Below are positions 202-12,095 of a DNA stretch of 12,112 nt, in pieces. Source of the stretch: a virus. Its lineage: Duplodnaviria; Heunggongvirae; Uroviricota; Caudoviricetes. Both the position numbers and the translations under genes were made by a program. The stretch spans positions 1 through 12,112 of IMG/VR virus record IMGVR_UViG_2526164632_000015. One strand, written 5' to 3'. Under the pieces are notes generated by a model. It was not told the DNA's origin, made no database searches, and saw only the letters and a program-made list of their open reading frames with translations. Each line of letters starts with the position of its first letter. Within the stretch, counting starts at the first letter, position 1.

Positions 202-1773
202 ATGGACACCTCACTTGCTCATGAGAATGCCCGCCTGCGGGCACTGTTGCAGACGCAACAGGACACCATCCGCCAGATGGCGAAATACAACCGCCTGCTC
301 TCACAGCGGGTGGCGGCTTATGCTTCCGAAATCAACCGGCTGAAGGCGCTGGTTGCGAAACTGCAGCGCATGCAGTTCGGTAAAAGCTCAGAAAAACTTC
401 GCGCTAAAACCGAACGGCAGATACAGGAAGCACAGGAGCGAATCAGAGCACTTCAGGAAGAAATGGCGGAAACGCTGGGTGAGCAATATGACCCGGTACT
501 GCCATCCGCCCTGCGCCAGTCTTCAGCCCGTAAACCGTTACCGGCCTCACTTCCCCGTGAAACCCGGGTCATCCGGCCGGAAGAGGAATGCTGCCCGGCC
601 TGTGGTGGTGACCTCAGTCCTCTGGGGTGTGATGTGTCAGAGCAACTGGAGCTTATCAGCAGCGCCTTTAAGGTTATCGAAACACAACGTCCGAAACTGG
701 CCTGTTGTCGGTGCGACCATATCGTGCAGGCAACAGTACCTTCAAAACCCATTGCACGCAGTTATGCCGGAGCGGGGCTTCTGGCCCATGTTGTTACCGG
801 GAAATATGCAGACCATCTGCCGTTATACCGCCAGTCAGAAATATACCGTCGCCAGGGCGTGGAGCTGAGCCGCGCCACGCTGGGGCGCTGGACAGGTGCC
901 GTTGCTGAACTGCTGGAGCCGCTGTATGACGTCCTGCGCCAGTATGTGCTGATGCCCGGTAAAGTCCATGCTGATGATATCCCCGTCCCGGTCCAGGAGC
1001 CGGGCAGCGGTAAAACCCGGACCGCCCGGCTGTGGGTCTACGTCCGTGATGACCGTAACGCCGGTTCGGAAATGCCCCCGGCGGTCTGGTTCGCGTACTC
1101 ACCGGACCGGAAAGGTATCCATCCACAAAATCATCTGGCCGGTTACAGCGGTGTGCTTCAGGCCGATGCTTACGGTGGTTACCGGGTGTTATACGAATCC
1201 GGCAGAATAACGGAAGCCGCGTGTATGGCTCATGCCCGGAGAAAAATCCACGATGTGCATGCAAGAGTGCCCACCGACATCACCACGGAAGCCCTGCAGC
1301 GTATCGGTGAACTGTATGCCATAGAGGCAGAAGTCCGGGGATGTACAGCAGAACAGCGTCTGGCGGCAAGAAAAGCCAGAGCTGCGCCACTGATGCAGTC
1401 ACTGTATGACTGGATACAGACTCAGATGAAAACACTGTCGCGTCACTCGGATACGGCAAAAGCGTTCGCATACCTGCTGAAACAGTGGGATGGCCTGAAC
1501 GTGTACTGCAGTAATGGCTGGGTGGAAATCGACAACAACATCGCAGAGAACGCCTTACGGGGAGTGGCCGTAGGCCGGAAAAACTGGCTGTTCGCGGGTT
1601 CCGACAGCGGTGGCGAACATGCGGCGGTGTTGTACTCGCTGATCGGCACATGCCGTCTGAACAATGTGGAACCAGAAAAATGGCTGCGTTACGTCATTGA
1701 GCATATCCAGGATTGGCCGGCAAACCGGGTACGCGATCTGTTGCCCTGGAAAGTTGATCTGACCTCTCAGTAA
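202..1773 (+). CDS. tnpC: IS66-family transposase TnpC (orf3), intact, 523 aa
   Basis: 523-aa ORF with GAGGA Shine-Dalgarno upstream. It has an N-terminal coiled-coil-like region, a CxxC...CxxC zinc-ribbon (CCPACGG...CCRCD) and the conserved IS66 transposase core ([38 protein letters not shown]). About 70% identical in the C-terminal half to the copy B TnpC. Confidence 0.9.
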
Positions 1774-1803: not shown

Positions 1804-1844
1804 GATACACCGTTATATTCAAATTGTTCTGTTTTCAGGAACAT
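1804..1844 (-). pseudogene. G: 5' remnant (13 codons) of lambda G-like tail assembly chaperone gene, cut by IS66 copy A
   Basis: Minus-strand ATG at 1842-1844 lies 18 bp downstream of the gpV stop and reads MFLKTEQFEYNGV before hitting the IS terminus at 1803. This matches my recollection of the lambda gpG N-terminus (MFLKTESFEHNGV...) and the expected V-G gene order. Confidence 0.7.
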
Positions 1845-1862
1845 CGCTTATCTCTCAGCTCT

Positions 1863-2609
1863 TTAGCCACCCGGCACATTATTAACGGTAATTTCAGCCA
1901 CCGCAGCAAACTGACCATTACCGGAAATCACAGGGATGCTGACTTTTCCATCCTTAACCCCCGTCACAGTAATCGTCATATCTTTCACGCTAATGGTGGC
2001 TTTTGATGGATCGGCGGAAATCGCCCTGAATGTCTTATCCGTTGCATTTTCCGGTTCCACAGTAACGGTCAGGGTGGTTGTTTTCCCTTTTTCAACCGTA
2101 CCTGTCGGCGTTACCTTAATCGCAGTGACCGGCGTAATTTTGCTGCGTTCTTCCGCTACAGAAGGTTTACCCACGTTAGTGACTTTCACCGTGCGGGTGA
2201 TCACTTCTTTCGCCGTCACGGCCTTACCGATACTGCTGACCCAGCCACGAAACACATCCACCGTGCCATTCGGAAAACGGATTTTATAGGCCCGGACATC
2301 GCCGCTTTCAAACCAGCCTATAAGCCCTTTCTGGCCTTCCTCTCCCGGTTTCCAGGCCAGTGTAAAACTGGTATCACCTGCAGATTTCTGTCCCTGCCCG
2401 GTCGCGCTCCAGTCCGCGTCTTCATCATCCAGGTAGTTATCATCGTAGGATTCTGCCGTCATCTCGCCCGGCGTCAGATCCTTCACCTTAGCCAGTCGCT
2501 GCCAGTCATCATCTGACAACGGGTTGGCATAAGCATCATCCTTGCCGGTGTACACCCATAGTGTGGTGCCGGAACCTTTCACCGGCTCAAGAGGATTTGG
2601 TATTGCCAT
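1863..2609 (-). CDS. V: Major tail protein (lambda gpV homologue) with C-terminal Ig-like domain
   Basis: 248-aa ORF. Motifs [59 protein letters not shown] and [40 protein letters not shown] match lambda gpV as I recall it. C-terminal ~90 aa is a beta-rich Ig-like region. Confidence 0.92.
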
Positions 2610-2616
2610 ATCGTCC

Positions 2617-3015
2617 TCACATCTCGTAGGTAATTTTCCACAGGAGATCTGCCGATCCCCACATCATAAACTCATCATCCCGGCGGTAGTCATACCCCTG
2701 AAGATTCATCTTCAGCAGTAACGCACTGAGGCCGGGAACCGCCTCCAGCGCAGGAAGGATTTTCTCTTCCATCCACATATCCAGTGCCGAGTCCGGTTCT
2801 TTTGCCCTGAGAAAAACTTCAATATGCAGTGTCGCCTCCCAGGTCCCCTCATCAACGAACTCGTCAGCAGCAGACGCATCAGTCAGGTAAACAGCAACAG
2901 CAGGCAGTTCCTGTTCATCAATAAAAACCGGGCGGCCGTCAAACCAGCTCACCCGCTCAGAAATATTGTCTTTCAGGGCAGACAGAACTGCCGTCCGTAT
3001 TTCACGGTGTTTCAT
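2617..3015 (-). CDS. U: Tail terminator protein (lambda gpU homologue)
   Basis: 132-aa ORF. Start [11 protein letters not shown], internal LHIEVFL and C-terminal GYDYRRDD...SADL...ITYEM match the lambda gpU pattern. Sits between Z and V as in lambda. Confidence 0.88.
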
Positions 3016-3027
3016 ACACCCTCCCTG

Positions 3028-3657
3028 TCATTTTCTTTTCAGCACCAGGCGTAACTGATGCGTCATGGCTTTCATCATCTGCGCCGGTAATTTTTCCCGG
3101 TACATCCGGTCCCGTTCACGTTCAAAAGTTTCTGCCAGCGGTCCGGCAGTCGGAATTTTCACCACTTCAATCGGCAGACGGTAGCGTTTCGGCCTCCCTT
3201 TGCTGTCAGCACCGGTGGACGATGGTGCCCACGGCATACGCTGCATCACATGCCAGCGTCCGTTAGCCAGCCGGGTGATAAAGGCGTCCGGGATCCGTCT
3301 TTTCCCCACAATCAGCACACTGCCGCCCCCTTTCTTGACCGAACGCTCGCCTTTCTTTCGTCGCTTTCTGCGGGAAAGCCGCACGCTGGCCGTCCCCAGT
3401 TTTATGGCGGGCAGATTACCGGTGTTGATGATGACCTTCGCATAAATCCTGTCTGCGCTAGCCCGTTGCAGGCGGATACGCTCACGGATGAGACGGCGCG
3501 GAACCGCCAGCTCCCTGGCAACCGAAGAGGCCGTTTTCGCGATGATGGACTCCGCCACACGGTTAAGTGTCGTGGCGGCAGCCCGGGGAACGGCACGGCG
3601 GTCAATTGCATCCAGATTTTTCATGGCCTGCGCCAGACCTTTTATTGCCATACTCAT
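3028..3657 (-). CDS. Z: Minor tail protein Z (lambda gpZ homologue)
   Basis: 209-aa ORF. MAIKGL..., LPAIKLG, RLSRRKRRKKGERS..KGGGSVLIVGKRRIPDAFI..LANGRWHVMQR track lambda gpZ closely. Confidence 0.88.
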   Translation of the reverse strand: MSMAIKGLAQAMKNLDAIDRRAVPRAAATTLNRVAESIIAKTASSVARELAVPRRLIRERIRLQRASADRIYAKVIINTGNLPAIKLGTASVRLSRRKRRKKGERSVKKGGGSVLIVGKRRIPDAFITRLANGRWHVMQRMPWAPSSTGADSKGRPKRYRLPIEVVKIPTAGPLAETFERERDRMYREKLPAQMMKAMTHQLRLVLKRK

Positions 3658-3935
3658 TCCTGTTCGACAAAAATCCGGGGTTTACCGTTGTACGTGTCAT
3701 AACGGGTCACCGTCAGTGTGCGCCCCGCAAACACAACAACATCATGACGGGCCGGACGGTACCGGGCTGAAAACACCACCAGTGACAACTGGCTGCCCGA
3801 AAGCGCCCCCATCTCCGCGGACTCTTCCTCCGGCATCACGTCATACACGACGCCGTTAATCTCCGCCTGTTTGCCCATCACCCGAACGGTCGCCCCGTCC
3901 ATCCGGCAACACATTCGCGTAAACAGATCAGACAT
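3654..3935 (-). CDS. Small head-tail joining protein (gpFII-position, head-tail attachment-like)
   Basis: 93-aa ORF in the position lambda FII occupies before Z; start overlaps the upstream gene by 8 bp. Assignment is by position and size only. Confidence 0.5.
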   Translation of the reverse strand: MSDLFTRMCCRMDGATVRVMGKQAEINGVVYDVMPEEESAEMGALSGSQLSLVVFSARYRPARHDVVVFAGRTLTVTRYDTYNGKPRIFVEQE

Positions 3936-4254
3936 TGATTTTTACCGCCACAGTGGCGCTGTTTGCAGGAGCATTTTCCCAGGCTACCCCCGCGGCCACC
4001 GCACCCTCTGCAGCCAGCTGCACAACCCCGTCCTTCAGATAAACCACCGCGCCGGACTGAATGTCGTCAGCAGACTGTTTGGGCAGAAGGAACACGCCTT
4101 CGGCAAAACCGTCACCGGCATCACCGGCAGGAATATCTGTAATGGCCACGGCCACCATACTGCCGACCACCACCGCAGCACCGCTCAGGATGGTCTGATC
4201 TCCGGCATTCACCAGTTCAATGGTGGTACCGTCCTGTACAAAATTTTTCGCCAT
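3928..4254 (-). CDS. Small Gly/Ala/Val-rich head protein, putative decoration/cement protein (DUF2190-like)
   Basis: 108-aa ORF with a good Shine-Dalgarno (GGAGAAA about 8 nt upstream of ATG) immediately after the capsid gene. Composition is beta-rich G/A/V. Function inferred from position and composition. Confidence 0.5.
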   Translation of the reverse strand: MAKNFVQDGTTIELVNAGDQTILSGAAVVVGSMVAVAITDIPAGDAGDGFAEGVFLLPKQSADDIQSGAVVYLKDGVVQLAAEGAVAAGVAWENAPANSATVAVKINV

Positions 4255-4270
4255 AATGCTGTTTCTCCGG

Positions 4271-4293
4271 ACAGCCCCTGTGGGGCTGTTTTT
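4271..4293 (+). terminator. Perfect 8-bp stem / 3-nt loop hairpin followed by T5 on the + strand
   Basis: ACAGCCCC-TGT-GGGGCTGT followed by TTTTT (4289-4293). Lies in the 86-bp gap between the capsid and decoration genes, directly upstream of the decoration gene's ribosome-binding site on the minus-strand mRNA. Confidence 0.4.
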
Positions 4294-4300
4294 CAGGCAT

Positions 4301-4318
4301 AAAAAAGCCCTTTCGGGC
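4301..4318 (-). terminator. Short GC hairpin with GAAA loop followed by U6 on the minus (coding) strand, just after the capsid stop
   Basis: Minus-strand reading is GCCC-GAAA-GGGC then TTTTTT (reverse complement of 4301-4306). Only a 4-bp stem, so at best a weak or partial terminator. Confidence 0.3.
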
Positions 4319-4340
4319 AGTGATTGTGATAACTCGGTTA

Positions 4341-6320
4341 TCAGGCCACCGACGAACGCACCAGCCCGCGCCAGTCAAGTGGTGCCACTCCGGCATCAAT
4401 ACGGATTTTTGTGGCAATGCCGTCAGTGGTGAAACCTTCCTGCTGATCAATGTATGGCGTGTCCACACCATCCAGCCAGGCCACTTCAATGGTGTCAGTG
4501 CCCTGTGCCGCCGCCAGATACCAGGTTTTCGGATCTGCCGCATCAAGACGCGCTTCTGCAATCACCTCAGCAAAGTTCTGGATGGGGTTAATGACACCGG
4601 CGTTTGCATCCGCCCCTTTCACACTGGCCGATTTGATGGTCTGGTTCGCCACCGTCTCCAGTGCCACCGGTACCAGCATAAAGGCCGGACGGATATTCAG
4701 GGCGCGATCGCCTTCTTTCTGCAGGCGCATCATCTGACGGGCCGCATCCAGTCCGGAAACGGAAATCCCACCGGTGGCAATATTTTTGTGATCGGCATGG
4801 AACAGCGCCTTACCGTCTGACAGTTTCGGGTTATCCGTCAGCACCTTGTAAACCAGGTCACCAATCGTTGCCTTCGCCGCACGCCCCATCTTCATCGGCA
4901 CGTCCACCAGCATATTCAGATCATCATTGATAATGGCCTGGCGGGTGATGGAGAAAATCTCCCCGTAAGTGGCCAGTGCAATGGTCTCCTTGCGATCTGA
5001 GGTGGTGATGTATTTATACTCCGCCCCCTCACGAACCTGGCGCAGAGAACCAAAACCGCCCATCCCCACGCGATACGCTGTTTTGAAGTCTGACAGGCGT
5101 CCCTTACGGGTCCACTTCTGGAAGGTTTCTTCTGATTCCTCCCAGCCCTGGATCAGCCCCTTGTTCGACACATCCAGCAGAATATTGCCAAAATCAGAGG
5201 TGCTGTGCGTCAGCGCCAGCCCGACCATCTGCATGGGGTTATAACTGGCCACCCCAATACCGCGCTCCGTCAGTGACATGCGAGCCCATTCACGCAGGGT
5301 CATCCCGTTATAGGCGTTATCCTTCTCGACATTTTCAAATCCGGCACGGGCCAGCATCGCCTGGCGGATCCCGTCCCCCACAAAATTGCCGTTTCCGGCA
5401 TAAATATGAGCCGGTGTATTTTTGTTGGTCGGCGAGGACTCCTTGCCCATTTCATTCAGCAGACGTTCACGGGCCATTTCCAGCGAACAGTCAGGATCAG
5501 CCACGCACTGTGCCTGAAGCGTCTGATAGCGACCGCCGAACATGGCAAACAGATCGTTAATGCCTGACATGCGGGCTTTCTGTTCTGCCATAACGCGGGC
5601 GCGAATGGTCGCCTCATCAGACACTGCCGGTACCGGTGATGGTTCTGTTACCGCCGGTGCAGGGATTGTCACTGTGGTATCACGCGGGGCACTGTTGTAT
5701 GGCTGCGTGATCATATTTCGGATGGATTCCGGCATCTTTTTAAATTCCTCTGTACGTTTTGACTGAATACATGCCATTGCCTTAACGGCTGGCGTCACCT
5801 GGTCTGCAAATCCGTGTGCCAGACACTCGGCACCGGACATCCAGGTCTCATCCGCCAGCATGGCGGCAATTTCATCGGTAGTTTTTCCGGTTTTCTGCGC
5901 ATATACCGGCACCATAACCGACTCAAGTTTGTCCAGACGTTCGGCATAAGTGCGCATTTTCTCCGCATCACCACCGCTGATCCCCCAGGGTTTATGGATC
6001 ATCATGAAGGCATTTTCCGGCATAATGACCGTGTCACCGGCCATCGCAATCAGGGATGCCATCGAGGCGGCAACGCCATCCACATACACGGTAATGGCCG
6101 CACCGTGATTTTTCAGGGCATTAAAAATGGCGATGCCTTCAAAGACATCGCCACCCGGTGAGTTGATGTGGAGATTAATGTGGGTGATATCACCCAGGGC
6201 ATTCATATCGCTGACAAACTGCTTCGCGGTAACTCCCCAGAAACCAATCTCGTCATAAATATAAATATCCGCCTCACCCTGACCACCCGCCTGCATCCTG
6301 AACCAGGATTTATTCTTCAT
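4341..6320 (-). CDS. Fused head maturation protease (ClpP-like) / scaffold-like linker / HK97-fold major capsid protein
   Basis: One uninterrupted minus-strand frame. N-terminal ~200 aa carries ClpP-type motifs (HINSPGGDV, VDGVAASMASLIAMAGD, MMIHKPWG). A charged, helix-prone linker follows, then a ~300-aa C-terminal capsid-like region. The longest ORF runs to 6512, but that extension overlaps the portal coding region; start chosen at M65 (ATG 6318-6320, MKNKSWFR...). Start codon is uncertain; 6296 is an alternative. Confidence 0.8.
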   Translation of the reverse strand: MKNKSWFRMQAGGQGEADIYIYDEIGFWGVTAKQFVSDMNALGDITHINLHINSPGGDVFEGIAIFNALKNHGAAITVYVDGVAASMASLIAMAGDTVIMPENAFMMIHKPWGISGGDAEKMRTYAERLDKLESVMVPVYAQKTGKTTDEIAAMLADETWMSGAECLAHGFADQVTPAVKAMACIQSKRTEEFKKMPESIRNMITQPYNSAPRDTTVTIPAPAVTEPSPVPAVSDEATIRARVMAEQKARMSGINDLFAMFGGRYQTLQAQCVADPDCSLEMARERLLNEMGKESSPTNKNTPAHIYAGNGNFVGDGIRQAMLARAGFENVEKDNAYNGMTLREWARMSLTERGIGVASYNPMQMVGLALTHSTSDFGNILLDVSNKGLIQGWEESEETFQKWTRKGRLSDFKTAYRVGMGGFGSLRQVREGAEYKYITTSDRKETIALATYGEIFSITRQAIINDDLNMLVDVPMKMGRAAKATIGDLVYKVLTDNPKLSDGKALFHADHKNIATGGISVSGLDAARQMMRLQKEGDRALNIRPAFMLVPVALETVANQTIKSASVKGADANAGVINPIQNFAEVIAEARLDAADPKTWYLAAAQGTDTIEVAWLDGVDTPYIDQQEGFTTDGIATKIRIDAGVAPLDWRGLVRSSVA

Positions 6321-7811
6321 GCTGGCTGTCGGTGGCCTGCTGACGCTGTTGTTCAGTTCCGGCACTGTTGCCTCCTTTGTCGTTGACGGGGTCAGTATCA
6401 AAGACCAGCCCCAGTCTGCTGTTTTCATCAATTTCAGCCTTGCGGCGACGTTTGACCTCATCCGGATTGCGCCCGCCGGCACGCACCCAGTCAGATTCTG
6501 TCGCTGCACCACCCCGGATCTGAATTCTCCAGGCTTCAGCTTCCTTAACCGGGTCGATCCACGGCATCACCGGACCGGAATACGTCGCGTTATATAGCGT
6601 TTTCATCTCCACATCCGCCGGAATTTTCAGCAGACCTGCCGCAACCACCATATTCAGCCATGTCCGGTACACCGGACGGGTTACCGCGCCAATAAAACAG
6701 TCCTGCAGGATCAGGTAACCATCCGTGGACTCGACCAGCTCCTGCCGCTGGGCACTGTAGGTGCCGTTATAGTTACGCGCCGCACTGGAAAAACTCAGAC
6801 GACTGCCCGCTGCCACTGCACGCAACTGGCCGTTGCGGAAAGTTTCAAGGTTGGGATTGGGACGGTCTGATTTGACCATGCCGATATCCTCGCCCTTGCG
6901 CAAATCGTCATAAATAATACCCGGGGTGATATGGACTTCCCGGTCGGTTTCTTTGATCCCCGGCTCTTCATAGTCCTGCCCGTCACCTTTACGGATATAC
7001 AGTCCCAGCGCCGCGGCAATACGCGCCGCAGTGAGTTCCGCATCCTCATACTCCTTAAGGGCACTGATCCGCATCAGCACCCCCGATAACATGGATGAGC
7101 CTCGCGTCTGATGCAGACGACGAGTGAACTTCAGGTGGATCATTTTTCCGGCAGCGATTTCTTTCGTATCACTCTGCCGGCCGCTGACCGGATAATTTTT
7201 ATAAACCAGATATTTTTCGGTCTTCCCCACTCATCAAGAAAAACCCCCTGATTCAGTCCGGCGGATTCATCAGTGCGCATGGGAACAAAATCCGGCTCCA
7301 TCGCCTCAAGCCAGAATGGCACTCCCGCCGTCCGTTCCAGACCGTTTCCCGCACCACTGACCATCTGCGCAAACACTTCACCATCCCGCAGCCAGGTCCG
7401 CAGCAGTAAACGTTCAAGCACGGGACGGGTATACTGCCCTGTCACATCCGGACTCACGGACCACTCAGCCCACAACCGGCGGATATCCGCAGCCAGCTCT
7501 GCCGCCATTTCCCCGTTTTTTCGTAATGGCTGAGGCTCCACAATAATTCCCCTGGCACCAATCACCCGCTCTTCCAGCTTGTCAAACACACCAATCACCA
7601 GGTCATGATTGATATCCAGAAAACGGGCCTGCTCCCGCAGGGAAACCGCACCGTATTTACTGAGCTGATCAGCAGAGCGATTTTCCCGCCGGGCTTTATG
7701 TGTCCGGGTCGGTTTCACCGCCTCATAGGCCATGATTAACGCCCTTGAACGCAGTCTGGCTGCTTTCCAGCCGGGGGAAAACACGCCTATCACATCATCA
7801 ATAATTGCCAT
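6310..7811 (-). pseudogene. Phage portal protein, split by a single-base frameshift (or homopolymer sequencing error)
   Basis: Two overlapping minus-strand ORFs (7811-7140, 223 aa; 7230-6310, 306 aa) sum to a typical ~530-aa portal and sit between gpW and the protease/capsid gene. The frame switch must lie between 7233 and 7200, where there is an A5 run on the coding strand (T5 at 7213-7217 on +). Adding one A would read ...LDEWGRPKKYLVYKNYPVSG... Confidence 0.75.
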
Positions 7812-8047
7812 TAAAACCTCGCCAGTTTAAATCCTGGTTTTCCCCGCCTGCGGCTCACCATCGCGGCAAGCCTGCGTTCCCACTCCTGACGTCCGGCGCG
7901 GATCTGAGAAAGGCTTTCCAGCGTCAGTTGCTGTCCGTTGAAGGTGACAGACTTCCCCTCCAGTACGGCCATTTCCGCTTCACGGTACCGCTGTATCATT
8001 TCTCTGGCTTCTTCTGTGCTCACAACCAGCCTCCTGATGTTATCCAT
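7811..8047 (-). CDS. W: Head-tail joining protein (lambda gpW-like)
   Basis: 78-aa ORF between terminase large subunit and portal, as W is in lambda. C-terminus ...RRRGKPGF resembles the lambda gpW C-terminus (...RRRGPAGF) as recalled. Stop overlaps portal start (TAATG). Confidence 0.65.
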   Translation of the reverse strand: MDNIRRLVVSTEEAREMIQRYREAEMAVLEGKSVTFNGQQLTLESLSQIRAGRQEWERRLAAMVSRRRGKPGFKLARF

Positions 8048-9640
8048 GGATTATCTTCCGCACGCTCCGTCCGCAGTTTTTTCTTCCGGCGACGGCGTTT
8101 TTCTGCCCCGGCCGTCAGTTCCGGGGATACCGTTTCACCAGAACGCTCCTGCGGGAAGACGAGCCACGTTTCCCGCTGTGCCCAGTCCGGTGCGGAGGGC
8201 CAGCGGATCTTTTCGTAACCATGCAGAACGGCAAGCGCATCCGCATAAACCAGCAGGTCAAACGCCTCGTTAGCTCCCCTGCCCGGTTTTCGCCATTTTC
8301 CGTCACTGCCGCGCTCTTCATAGGTCAGCTCATCGTAAAACCATCGCCCCAGCCAGTCGGGAAAGTGGATATAGTTCGGCCCTGGTGTGTCACGCCACAG
8401 GGCATTATTTACACGGTCCTTAAACGCATCCGTCTGAACCAGCCACAGCGCGACATCGCCACTGGCTCTGGCACGGCGGGCACTTCTGCCGGTATTATCC
8501 GGGAAGGTACGGTTAATCAGCCTGTCACGGCGAAGTCCATCCCCCTTGAACAGAAACACCCTGTTGCCCAGTCCGTCACTCCGGCAACGACACCAGAAAC
8601 GATAGGCGTTATCTGTCACCCCGGCTTCCCCTCCCGTATCCACCGCCATGGCCATCAGACGCATGCGCACATCCGGATCAGAAGCCAGCGGCCATGTTTT
8701 ATGGAACACATCCGTCAGCAACAAATCCCAGTCCTCCGGATATGCCGCCGGATCAACCGGCAGACTTTCACCGTTGGGACTGCAGCGCAGTGAATGCCGG
8801 ATGTTATAGCGATCAACAATCCAGCGTTCCCCCTGCTCTCCGTATCCGGTGATCTGCACAACAAAACGGCGATTTTTACCGCCCTGTACGTCAACCGTTG
8901 CCTCAATAAAACGCACACCATCCGGCACAGATCGCCGGGGAAACGGCTCGGCACGCTGTTCAAGCAGTTCACTTTTACGCTGTTCCGTGGCTGAACGGGG
9001 CAGATAGGGGCGTCCGATATCGGTGTTCACCACCGCTTTCAGGGTCTCTTCACTGCCGGTTCGCTCATACTCTTCTTCTGCCGCCAGCAGTTTAAAAATC
9101 AGTTGTTCCCAGGTCTGAAACGCCGCAGCCGGCCCCTCCATCCAGAATGACGCAATCCGGGAATTTCGTGGCGTTCCGGTGATACTGCCGTCCGCCACCG
9201 CCCGTTCACCTTCACGAAGCCAGATCCCTTTGTTATTCAGTTCGCGTTTCTGCTCAGGGGCAATCAGCCCGCGACAATGCGGACACATCAGACGGGCAGC
9301 CTGACCGGCAGCCACAAAATCCGGGTTATTCCGGTATCCGGTCATGTTATCCATCACCGGCTGAAAATATTCCCCGCAGTGCGGACACGGCCAGTACCAC
9401 CGGCGGCGGTCTCCCCGGTTATACAGTGACAGGATCCCCGTTGTTGGCGGTGCCTCATGTGCGCCGCCACAGCGCCATTTGGTGTCAGTGATATCCCGCC
9501 CCGGCGAACTCTCGACCAGGGTCATCCCCGAGGACATAAAGGTGGTGGTACGCTTTGATGCCAGGGTGAAGGCATCCCCTTCCCCGTCCACGTTTTCAGG
9601 GAAACGGTCATAATCCGTCAGCGCCACACGACGGTAATCC
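8020..9640 (-). pseudogene. A: Terminase large subunit (lambda gpA family), N-terminally truncated by IS66 copy B
   Basis: About 540 codons of open frame with a CPHCGE...CPHC zinc-binding segment and a C-terminal region (IHFPDW..., NEAFDLLVYADALAVL) resembling lambda gpA. Typical gpA proteins are ~640 aa; the frame runs straight into the IS terminus at 9641. The ORF track extends it to 9723 only because the frame stays open by chance inside the IS. Confidence 0.8.
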
Positions 9641-9672
9641 GTAAGCGTCGTCTCAGCACCGTCTGGCAGATC
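9641..9672. repeat. Left terminal inverted repeat of IS66 copy B
   Basis: GTAAGCGTCGTCTCAGCACCGTCTGG...; matches the right-end reverse complement at positions 1-8 and across the CAGCACCGT region. Imperfect. Confidence 0.55.
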
Positions 9673-9721
9673 CTGAAATTCCTGAGAGAATAGTGGACAC
9701 CAAATATGGTGGACGCTATCC

Positions 9722-10126
9722 ATGAAATCATTAACCGCAGTGCGTAAAAAAAGCCCTAATTATCCCGTTGAGTTCAAAATCAAAATGGTTGAACTCTCGC
9801 ATCGACCAGAGATCTCCGTAGCGCAACTCGCTCGTGAGCATGGGATCAACGATAATTTGCTGTTCAAGTGGCGCCAGTACTGGCGCGAAGGAAAACTACG
9901 TCCTCCTTCAACAACAGAAAACAACGTGCCTGAGCTGCTCCCGATAACACTTGATGCCGAAGATGTTGTCCCTACAACCTCCCCCCGGTCACAACCTGTA
10001 GCTGCTGCGACACCTGAATCACTCAATATCAGCTGTGAAGTGACGTTCCGGCACGGATCACTCCGTCTGAATGGTGCCATCAGCGAAAATATCCTGAACC
10101 TGCTGATACGGGAGCTCAAACGTTGA
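9722..10126 (+). CDS. tnpA: IS66-family TnpA (orf1), small helix-turn-helix protein
   Basis: 134-aa ORF, first gene inside the IS, followed by tnpB with overlapping stop and start. The true start codon may be internal. Confidence 0.75.
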   Translation: MKSLTAVRKKSPNYPVEFKIKMVELSHRPEISVAQLAREHGINDNLLFKWRQYWREGKLRPPSTTENNVPELLPITLDAEDVVPTTSPRSQPVAAATPESLNISCEVTFRHGSLRLNGAISENILNLLIRELKR

Positions 10127-10470
10127 TCCCATTACCATCAGGGACAAAGATCTGGCTGGTCGCTGGCATCACCGATATGAGAAACGGCTTCAACGGCCTG
10201 GCGGCAAAGGTGCAGACGACGCTGAAAGACGATCCGATGTCAGGTCACGTTTTTATCTTCCGTGGGCGTAATGGCAGTCAGGTAAAGCTCCTCTGGTCTA
10301 CCGGCGATGGACTGTGTCTGCTGACCAAACGGCTGGAGCGCGGCCGCTTCGCCTGGCCGTCAGCCCGGGATGGCAAAGTGTTCCTCACACCGGCACAGCT
10401 GGCGATGCTGCTGGAAGGTATCGACTGGCGGCAGCCTAAAAGACTGCTTACGTCCCTGACTATGTTGTAA
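10123..10470 (+). CDS. tnpB: IS66-family TnpB (orf2)
   Basis: 115-aa ORF (MIPLPSGTKIWLVAGITDMRNGFNGLAAKV...). Apparent TTG start overlaps the tnpA TGA stop (TTGA), suggesting translational coupling. Confidence 0.8.
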   Translation: MIPLPSGTKIWLVAGITDMRNGFNGLAAKVQTTLKDDPMSGHVFIFRGRNGSQVKLLWSTGDGLCLLTKRLERGRFAWPSARDGKVFLTPAQLAMLLEGIDWRQPKRLLTSLTML

Positions 10471-10518
10471 GCCTCTTTATCCTGGTCGACGCTGAATGAG
10501 CCTGGTAATATACCCGGT

Positions 10519-12058
10519 ATGAGCAGCTCACTTCCTGACGATATCAATGCACTGAAACGTCTCCTTGCCGAACAGGAGGCGCTGAACCGTGCCCTGCTGG
10601 AAAAGCTGAACGAGCGTGAACGCGAAATAGACCATCTGCAGGCACAGCTGGATAAGCTGCGCCGGATGAACTTCGGCAGCCGCTCCGAAAAAGTCTCCCG
10701 TCGTATCGCACAGATGGAAGCTGACCTGAAGGCACTTCAGAAAGAAAGTGATACCCTTACCGGTCGGGTTGACGACCCGGCCGTGCAGCGCCCGCTGCGT
10801 CAAACCCGCACCCGCAAACCGTTCCCCGAATCACTCCCCCGCGATGAAAAACGGCTGCTGCCGGCAGCATCATGCTGCCCGGAATGTGGAGGCTCACTGA
10901 GCTATCTGGGTGAGGATGCCGCCGAACAGCTGGAGTTGATGCGCAGCGCCTTCCGGGTTATCCGGACTGTACGTGAAAAAGCATGCCTGTACTCAGTGCG
11001 ATGCCATCGTGCAGGCCCCCGCGCCTTCACGGCCCATCGAGCGGGGTATCGCAGGACCGGGGCTGCTGGCCCGCGTGCTGATCTCAAAGTATGCAGAGCA
11101 CACCCCGCTGTACCGCCAGTCTGAAATGTACGGCCGCCAGGGCGTGGAGCTGAGTCGTTCACTGCTGTCGGGCTGGGTGGATGCATGCTGCCGGCTACTG
11201 TCACCGCTGGAAGAAGCGCTTCAGGACTATGTGCTGACTGACGGTAAGCTCCATGCTGATGACACGCCTGTCCCGGTGCTGTTGCCAGGCAATAAGAAAA
11301 CGAAGACCGGGCGGTTATGGACCTACGTTCGTGACGACCGTAACGCCGGGTCAACGCTGGCGCCGGCGGTGTTGTTCGCTTACAGCCCGGACAGAAAAGG
11401 CATCCATCCGCAGACCCATCTTGCGGGGTTCAGTGGTGTACTGCAGGCGGATGCATACGCCGGGTTCAACGAGCTGTACCGGGATGGCCGGATAACGGAA
11501 GCCGCCTGTTGGGCTCACGCCCGCCGTAAAATCCACGATGTGCACGTTCGCACCCCGTCAGCCCTGACGGAGGAAGCGCTGAAACGGATCGGCGAACTGT
11601 ACGCCATCGAGGCAGAGATAAGGGGAATGACGGCGGAGCAGCGCCTTGCCGAACGTCAGTTGAAAACGAAACCGCTGCTGAAATCCCTGGAAAGCTGGCT
11701 GCGTGAAAAGATGAAAACCCTGTCGCGACACTCAGAACTGGCGAAAGCGTTCGCATACGCCCTGAACCAGTGGCCGGCGCTGACGTACTATGCAGATGAT
11801 GGCTGGGCTGAGGCGGACAATAACATCGCTGAAAATGCGTTGCGGATGGTCAGTCTGGGCCGCAAAAACTACCTGTTCTTCGGTTCGGATCATGGAGGAG
11901 AGCGGGGAGCGCTGCTGTACAGCCTGATCGGGACGTGCAAACTGAACGGAGTGGAGCCAGAAAGCTACCTCCGCTATGTCCTTGACGTCATAGCCGACTG
12001 GCCGATAAACCGGGTCGGCGAACTGCTCCCCTGGCGCGTAGCACTGCCGACTGAATAA
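10519..12058 (+). pseudogene. tnpC: IS66-family transposase TnpC (orf3) with a +1 frameshift at an A5 run (10976-10980)
   Basis: ORFs 10519-11124 and 10973-12058 together align colinearly with the intact copy A TnpC. Removing one A from the run restores ...[20 protein letters not shown]..., parallel to copy A ...[20 protein letters not shown]... Confidence 0.8.
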
Positions 12059-12095
12059 CACATCCCCGTCAATACGGTTCTTGCTGCACGCTTAC
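12059..12095. repeat. Right terminal inverted repeat of IS66 copy B
   Basis: ...CAATACGGTTCTTGCTGCACGCTTAC; shares the AGAACCGTATTGA core with the copy A right end. Confidence 0.6.

Follow-up and report, generated by a model that had tools for sequence, protein, structure and literature searches.

The locus

The window, by which we mean the whole stretch of 12,112 nt that was analysed, carries on its minus strand a single uninterrupted open reading frame at 4341..6512. Counted from the ATG at 6320, from which all residue numbers below are given, the gene within it encodes 659 amino acids (about 71.7 kDa) and ends in a TGA stop at 4341-4343. The sequence-only reading of this DNA had proposed one uninterrupted frame of about 660 codons at 4341-6320, joining a ClpP-like protease to a capsid protein, and a frame of 659 codons is indeed present there. 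That reading did not give the strand, which is minus, and the start is probably further upstream, at GTG 6365, as discussed below. A gene on the plus strand at 4341-6320 can be dismissed, as the translation there is full of stops. We take the whole gene, comprising protease, scaffold-like linker and capsid parts, to extend probably over 4341..6365 (minus strand), as indicated by the open reading frame and by matches to NF045540, PHROG 133, WP_122986669.1 and the Gifsy-2 protein.

The next gene upstream, at 6310..7811 (minus strand), is for a lambda-type portal protein, and its 3' end runs into the start of the fusion gene. A 1-nt difference in the T run at 7212 divides the window copy into two ORFs, 7140..7811 and 6310..7230, and both halves are matched by Phage_portal_2 and TIGR01539; in E. 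coli O111:H2 strain 12A the portal gene is intact (500 aa). Directly downstream of the fusion gene, at 3928..4254 (minus strand), is the gene for the partner of the capsid protein, a head decoration (cement) protein of 108 aa, identified by Phage_cement_2 (5e-19) and PHROG 122 (3e-39) and 54% identical to Gifsy-2 STM1034.

Between the fusion and decoration genes (4255-4340, minus strand) there is a small hairpin, GCCC-GAAA-GGGC, followed by T6, and a second, GC-rich hairpin, AGCCCC-ACA-GGGGCT, lies just before the GGAG ribosome-binding site of the decoration gene. The terminator scan made no call for either of these two hairpins, which might serve to stabilise the RNA or as a weak attenuator.

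The gene for a 93-aa protein at 3654-3935 (minus strand) has conflicting labels, being "Gifsy-2 / ATP-binding sugar transporter from pro-phage" in PF13856, "minor tail protein" in PHROG 153 and "DNA breaking-rejoining protein" in the PGAP annotation. Its position, with the decoration gene on one side and Z on the other, makes a head-completion or head-tail joining protein the likelier product.

Positions 1804-12095 of the window differ from the sequence of strain 12A by only three 1-nt indels, all in homopolymers and all outside the fusion gene. At 4300, in intergenic DNA, the window has A6 and strain 12A has A7; the difference at 7212 that splits the portal gene is T5 for T6; and at 10976 there is A5 for A4, which splits the transposase gene of ISEc22. 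One-base differences of this kind are typical of errors in long-read sequencing; the three could also be real changes.

The start of the fusion gene

An in-frame GTG at 6365-6363 lies 15 codons upstream of ATG 6320, and a gene starting there has 674 codons. Five nt upstream of this GTG is a Shine-Dalgarno sequence, AAGGAGG (6371..6377, minus strand), and its predicted pairing with the 16S tail, at -11.6 kcal/mol, is the strongest in the gene. In a scan that lists start candidates with an anti-Shine-Dalgarno duplex of -5.0 kcal/mol or stronger, the internal candidates were at -5.2 to -6.5 kcal/mol, and ATG 6320 fell below the threshold and has no recognisable ribosome-binding site. The N-terminus obtained from the GTG start, (M)PELNNS..., aligns with MPEV... 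of the Gifsy-2 protein and with MPELND... of 674-aa homologues. Because of the strong AAGGAGG site and these N-terminal alignments we suggest that GTG 6365 is probably the true start, with the gene then occupying 4341..6365 and beginning within the 3' end of the portal gene. The RefSeq/PGAP annotation of the identical gene starts at ATG 6320.

Domains of the fusion protein

The protein is matched over its whole length by NF045540, a curated NCBIfam model with the name [quoted passage not shown]. The match reaches 995.8 bits, for a cutoff of 475, and model positions 2-651 of 652 align with aa 17-657. PHROG 133 also spans the whole protein (1143.6 bits), and NF045542, the NCBIfam model for the head-maturation-protease domain, is likewise above its own cutoff. 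Searches of Pfam and NCBIfam thus found both of the domains that had been proposed, a Clp protease and a phage capsid domain.

The protease domain, of ClpP-like (MEROPS S14-type) serine protease, is at aa 7-176 (5793..6302, minus strand). Pfam CLP_protease matches aa 30-176 (1.5e-36), and in a sequence search the N-terminal part matched solved ClpP structures at 4e-17. The ClpP-type signature that had been noticed earlier is present, with AASMAS at aa 84-89 and MMIHKP at aa 106-111. It includes the catalytic Ser86 (6063-6065) and His109 (5994-5996), both on the minus strand and both invariant in 94 of 94 homologues with identities down to about 35%. The third member of the triad is putatively Glu158 (5847-5849, minus strand), an assignment made purely by alignment with the catalytic Asp of ClpP. 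The position is acidic in 89 of the 94 homologues, being Glu in 79 and Asp in 10, which suggests a Ser-His-Glu arrangement in this clade of phage proteases.

The C-terminal part, aa 313-659 (4344..5384, minus strand), is the major capsid protein region. The capsid-like domain expected there is found by Pfam as Phage_capsid_4 at aa 369-656 (4353-5216; 7.2e-56), and there is a weaker Pfam match to Mu-like gpT. A profile made from the C-terminal 424 residues matched solved major capsid proteins of the Mu-GpT type, 8rkx/8rkc at 3e-11 and 9jod at 6e-9, and the C-terminus is a major capsid domain of the HK97 fold.

An AlphaFold (AF2) model was built from 94 diverse homologues taken from representatives of 50%-identity clusters, with identities down to about 35%, and has a pLDDT of 87.7; a model made with only 43 close homologues (at least 74% identity) had a pLDDT of 36.6 and was discarded. 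There are separate folded N-terminal and C-terminal domains in the model, with a disordered linker and three helices between them. The compact alpha/beta domain of aa 7-176 is followed by two short helices and then by the disordered aa 206-233, the confident helices are at aa 236-259, 266-274 and 280-294, and after another, shorter stretch of disorder, at about aa 296-311, the rest of the chain up to the C-terminus forms a large alpha/beta domain.

The region between the two domains is the part that varies most. Distant homologues have identities of 0.34-0.68 in the protease domain and 0.35-0.55 in the capsid part, and of only 0.05-0.29 in aa 181-320. The disordered linker at aa 206-233 (5622..5705, minus strand) is hypervariable, with identities of 0.05-0.17 and with indels, has a pLDDT below 50 and is rich in Pro, Ala, Ser and Thr, which make up 63% of aa 205-234. 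The segment of three helices that follows, at aa 236-294 (5439..5615, minus strand), has pLDDT of about 95 in the helices and is moderately charged (29% charged residues), so that the charged helical linker of the sequence-only reading is there, preceded by a disordered stretch. The linker alone gave no Pfam family, even at E values up to 10. It is a segment common to the PHROG protease-scaffold families, and NF045541, the second NCBIfam fusion family, matches from aa 202 onward and includes it. The helical segment resembles a scaffold or delta domain, and by its position and helicity, and by analogy, the linker is most likely a scaffold.

A second product might be made from the same frame. 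Met196 (ATG 5735-5733) could be an internal in-frame start for a scaffold-capsid protein without the protease, made beside the full-length protein in the enterobacterial and Pseudomonas members of the family, giving nested products like those of lambda C and Nu3, and the protease would then be missing from most shell subunits. The position is suitable, being at a module boundary just after the protease domain, where the matches to NF045541 and PHROG 4523 begin, and the window, Gifsy-2 and Pseudomonas phage vB_Pae_BR133a all have an SD-like GAGG(A) 9-11 nt before the ATG. Met196 is also invariant among the 43 homologues of at least 74% identity. However, only 12 of the 94 sequences that represent the wider family have Met at this position, the others having mainly Ala, Val or Ile, while the adjacent Pro197 is kept in 88 of the 94. 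The SD-like motif coincides with conserved Glu-Glu or Gln-Glu codons and may be a by-product of conservation of the protein, and its pairing in the window is weak, at -6.0 kcal/mol as against -11.6 kcal/mol for the main start. We think nested products improbable. If the Met196 start were true, translation would set the ratio of protease to shell protein, and a nested device like that of lambda C/Nu3 would be hidden inside the fused gene.

Comparison with Gifsy-2 and other known systems

The window protein was compared directly with the Gifsy-2 genome record, NC_010393. The tripartite capsid protein of Gifsy-2 (STM1034.3n, 696 aa), described there as "Clp protease involved in capsid processing", has the same three parts in the same order, and over 669 aligned positions it has 61% identity and 77% similarity to the window protein, in an alignment that is collinear across the protease, linker and capsid parts. 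The gene order is also shared, and consists of terminase, a small W-like gene, lambda-type portal, the fusion, a decoration gene of about 108 aa, the PF13856 gene, Z, U and V. The Gifsy-2-type tripartite organisation that had been suggested for this gene is thus well supported, both by the collinear identity and by the neighbouring genes. With the NF045540 score and end-to-end coverage, a protease domain with its Ser and His, a capsid domain, a single frame and this synteny, the protein is a member of the NF045540 or Gifsy-2-type family.

There are some differences. In the Gifsy-2 protein the N-terminal leader is longer and 8 residues are inserted ahead of the capsid part, and the Pro/Ala/Thr-rich linker is divergent between the two. 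The host of Gifsy-2 is Salmonella whereas here it is E. coli, and the window copy, unlike that of Gifsy-2, is in a defective prophage. The fused protease-scaffold-capsid protein of Gifsy-2 was reportedly first described by Effantin et al. in 2010 (Virology 402:355). Passages in PMC12315714, PMC8538268 and PMC8814770 describe the Gifsy-2 capsid protein as processing itself to the mature form and as forming a T=7 shell; Gifsy-2 is listed as T=7 in one such passage of PMC8814770, and a passage of PMC8538268 places a trimeric decoration protein at the 3-fold axes.

With regard to lambda, the context of terminase, W-like, portal and Z-U-V genes is as in the window, the shell is stabilised by a decoration protein, and in both cases a serine protease of the ClpP/crotonase superfamily is joined to scaffold. 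However lambda has separate genes, C with the nested Nu3, then D and then E, where the window has a single fused gene, and the lambda decoration gene comes before the capsid gene and not after it. The lambda protease is of the SppA/S49 type, and the NCBIfam SppA models match the window protein only weakly (27.5 bits for a cutoff of 155, and 16.3 for a cutoff of 311). The view that this is not an arrangement of separate C, Nu3 and E genes therefore holds, as there is a single gene and the SppA scores are far below the cutoffs.

HK97 gp5 is like the window protein in that an HK97-fold capsid domain is preceded by an N-terminal helical segment, in our case presumably cut off by the prohead protease. 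The HK97 protease, gp4, is encoded by a separate gene and is of the S78 family with a herpesvirus-like fold, whereas the window protease is ClpP-like and fused, and there was no S78-family protease among the Pfam and NCBIfam matches to the window protein, which is thus not of the HK97 module type. The HK97 shell has a covalent chainmail, and the window prophage encodes a decoration protein instead.

Cellular ClpP has Asp at the catalytic position where the window protein has Glu, and the window domain is fused to a capsid protein. The equivalog models for cellular ClpP (TIGR00493 and related) score well below their cutoffs on the window protein, at 64.6 for a cutoff of 308.6 and 84 for a cutoff of 249. 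Judged by these comparisons the protease domain is a homologue that shares the ClpP fold, and not a ClpP orthologue.

The "protease/scaffold protein" genes of cryptic prophage CP-1639, of Stx2a- and Stx2d-converting phages and of VT1-Sakai are essentially the same gene as that in the window. In these older records the protease and scaffold part was named and the capsid domain was missed, and there is otherwise no substantive difference.

Distribution, and the integrity of the frame

E. coli 12A and FDAARGOS_1059 have copies with 100% identity to the window gene, whose product is identical to WP_122986669.1 of E. coli O111:H2 strain 12A, for which PGAP gives the fusion-protein name. The window gene has 99.5% nucleotide identity to the gene of CP-1639 and to those of several Stx2a-converting phages. 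Full-length relatives annotated with the fusion-protein name are in 1825 of 5426 complete E. coli genomes, and others are in cultured phages of E. coli and Pseudomonas. When representatives of 50%-identity clusters are considered, most of the best 150 matches are full-length fusions of 640-750 aa.

These data bear on whether the long frame could be an artefact, in which two or three separate genes for protease, scaffold and capsid have been joined by a frameshift in sequencing or assembly. The 1-nt homopolymer differences elsewhere in the window (4300, 7212 and 10976) make indel errors plausible. However there is no indel within 4341-6365 relative to strain 12A, the same uninterrupted gene is found in Gifsy-2, in many cultured phages and in the 1825 complete genomes, and the full-length architecture is kept in more than 100 of the 50%-identity clusters and is covered end to end by the curated full-length model. 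We give this explanation almost no credence, and a hidden frameshift, which had been named as the result that would overturn the single-gene view, can be rejected.

The fused protease-scaffold-capsid arrangement is old, widespread, curated and already known. On its sequence the window gene is an ordinary phage head gene of the Gifsy-2 type, and a member of a curated family.

State of the prophage

The window includes two IS66-family elements. Positions 1-1803 (to about 1807) are the right part of IS679, with a transposase ORF at 202..1773 and a terminal repeat that ends ...GAGCCGCTTAC at 1803. The element adjoins sequence just downstream of the tail tube gene V, and the window lacks 4.3 kb of strain 12A that holds the tail genes G, T, H (tape measure), M and L, which is what one expects of a deletion next to an IS. 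The second element, ISEc22 (about 9642-12095), is inserted in gpA, the gene for the large subunit of terminase. Its genes are tnpA (9722..10126), tnpB (10123..10470) and a transposase gene in two pieces (10519..11124 and 10973..12058). A "terminase" ORF of 567 aa at 8020..9723 takes its ATG from the IS and is without the N-terminal part of the ATPase domain. With its terminase gene interrupted by an IS, tail genes lost and the portal gene frameshifted, the E. coli host prophage is defective and cannot make virions by itself.

It follows that the intact fusion gene may be idle in this copy, as the prophage no longer makes virions by itself. A stronger view would be that in a dead prophage the gene now has no function and is decaying, in effect on its way to becoming a pseudogene, and the broken gpA, the absence of G, T, H, M and L beside IS679 and the frameshifted portal gene all fit with this. 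However the fusion gene itself is intact, with all of the catalytic and conserved residues present, and has its 100% identical copies in two other genomes and 99.5% nucleotide identity to the gene of Stx2a phages. We consider decay of the gene rather unlikely, and it would in any case concern the state of this copy and not the identity of the gene.

Proposed role in head assembly

Our preferred interpretation is that this is a head-shell gene of Gifsy-2-type lambdoid phages, encoding a ClpP-fold protease, a flexible and then helical linker that is most likely an internal scaffold, and an HK97-fold capsid protein, and we put the probability of this at about 93%.

By analogy with Gifsy-2, HK97 and lambda, a single polypeptide of 72-73 kDa would carry protease, linker and capsid into the assembling head, and full-length subunits would assemble on the portal to form a procapsid in which the protease and linker face inward. 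Again by analogy, crowding within the shell may switch on the protease domains, and these would then remove the protease and linker, the N-terminal 300 or so residues. The cut sites are probably within, or close to, the two disordered stretches (aa 206-233 and aa 296-311), and the remaining shell protein would have a computed mass of about 38-40 kDa. As DNA is packaged the shell would expand, and trimers of the decoration protein would then stabilise it.

What is added here to knowledge of the family is the probable GTG 6365 start, the domain boundaries and catalytic residues with Glu at the third triad position in most members, and the finding of an intact gene inside a prophage disabled by two IS66-family elements. 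The significance goes little beyond correct annotation, in this case of a gene that is carried by about a third of complete E. coli genomes, Shiga-toxin phages included.
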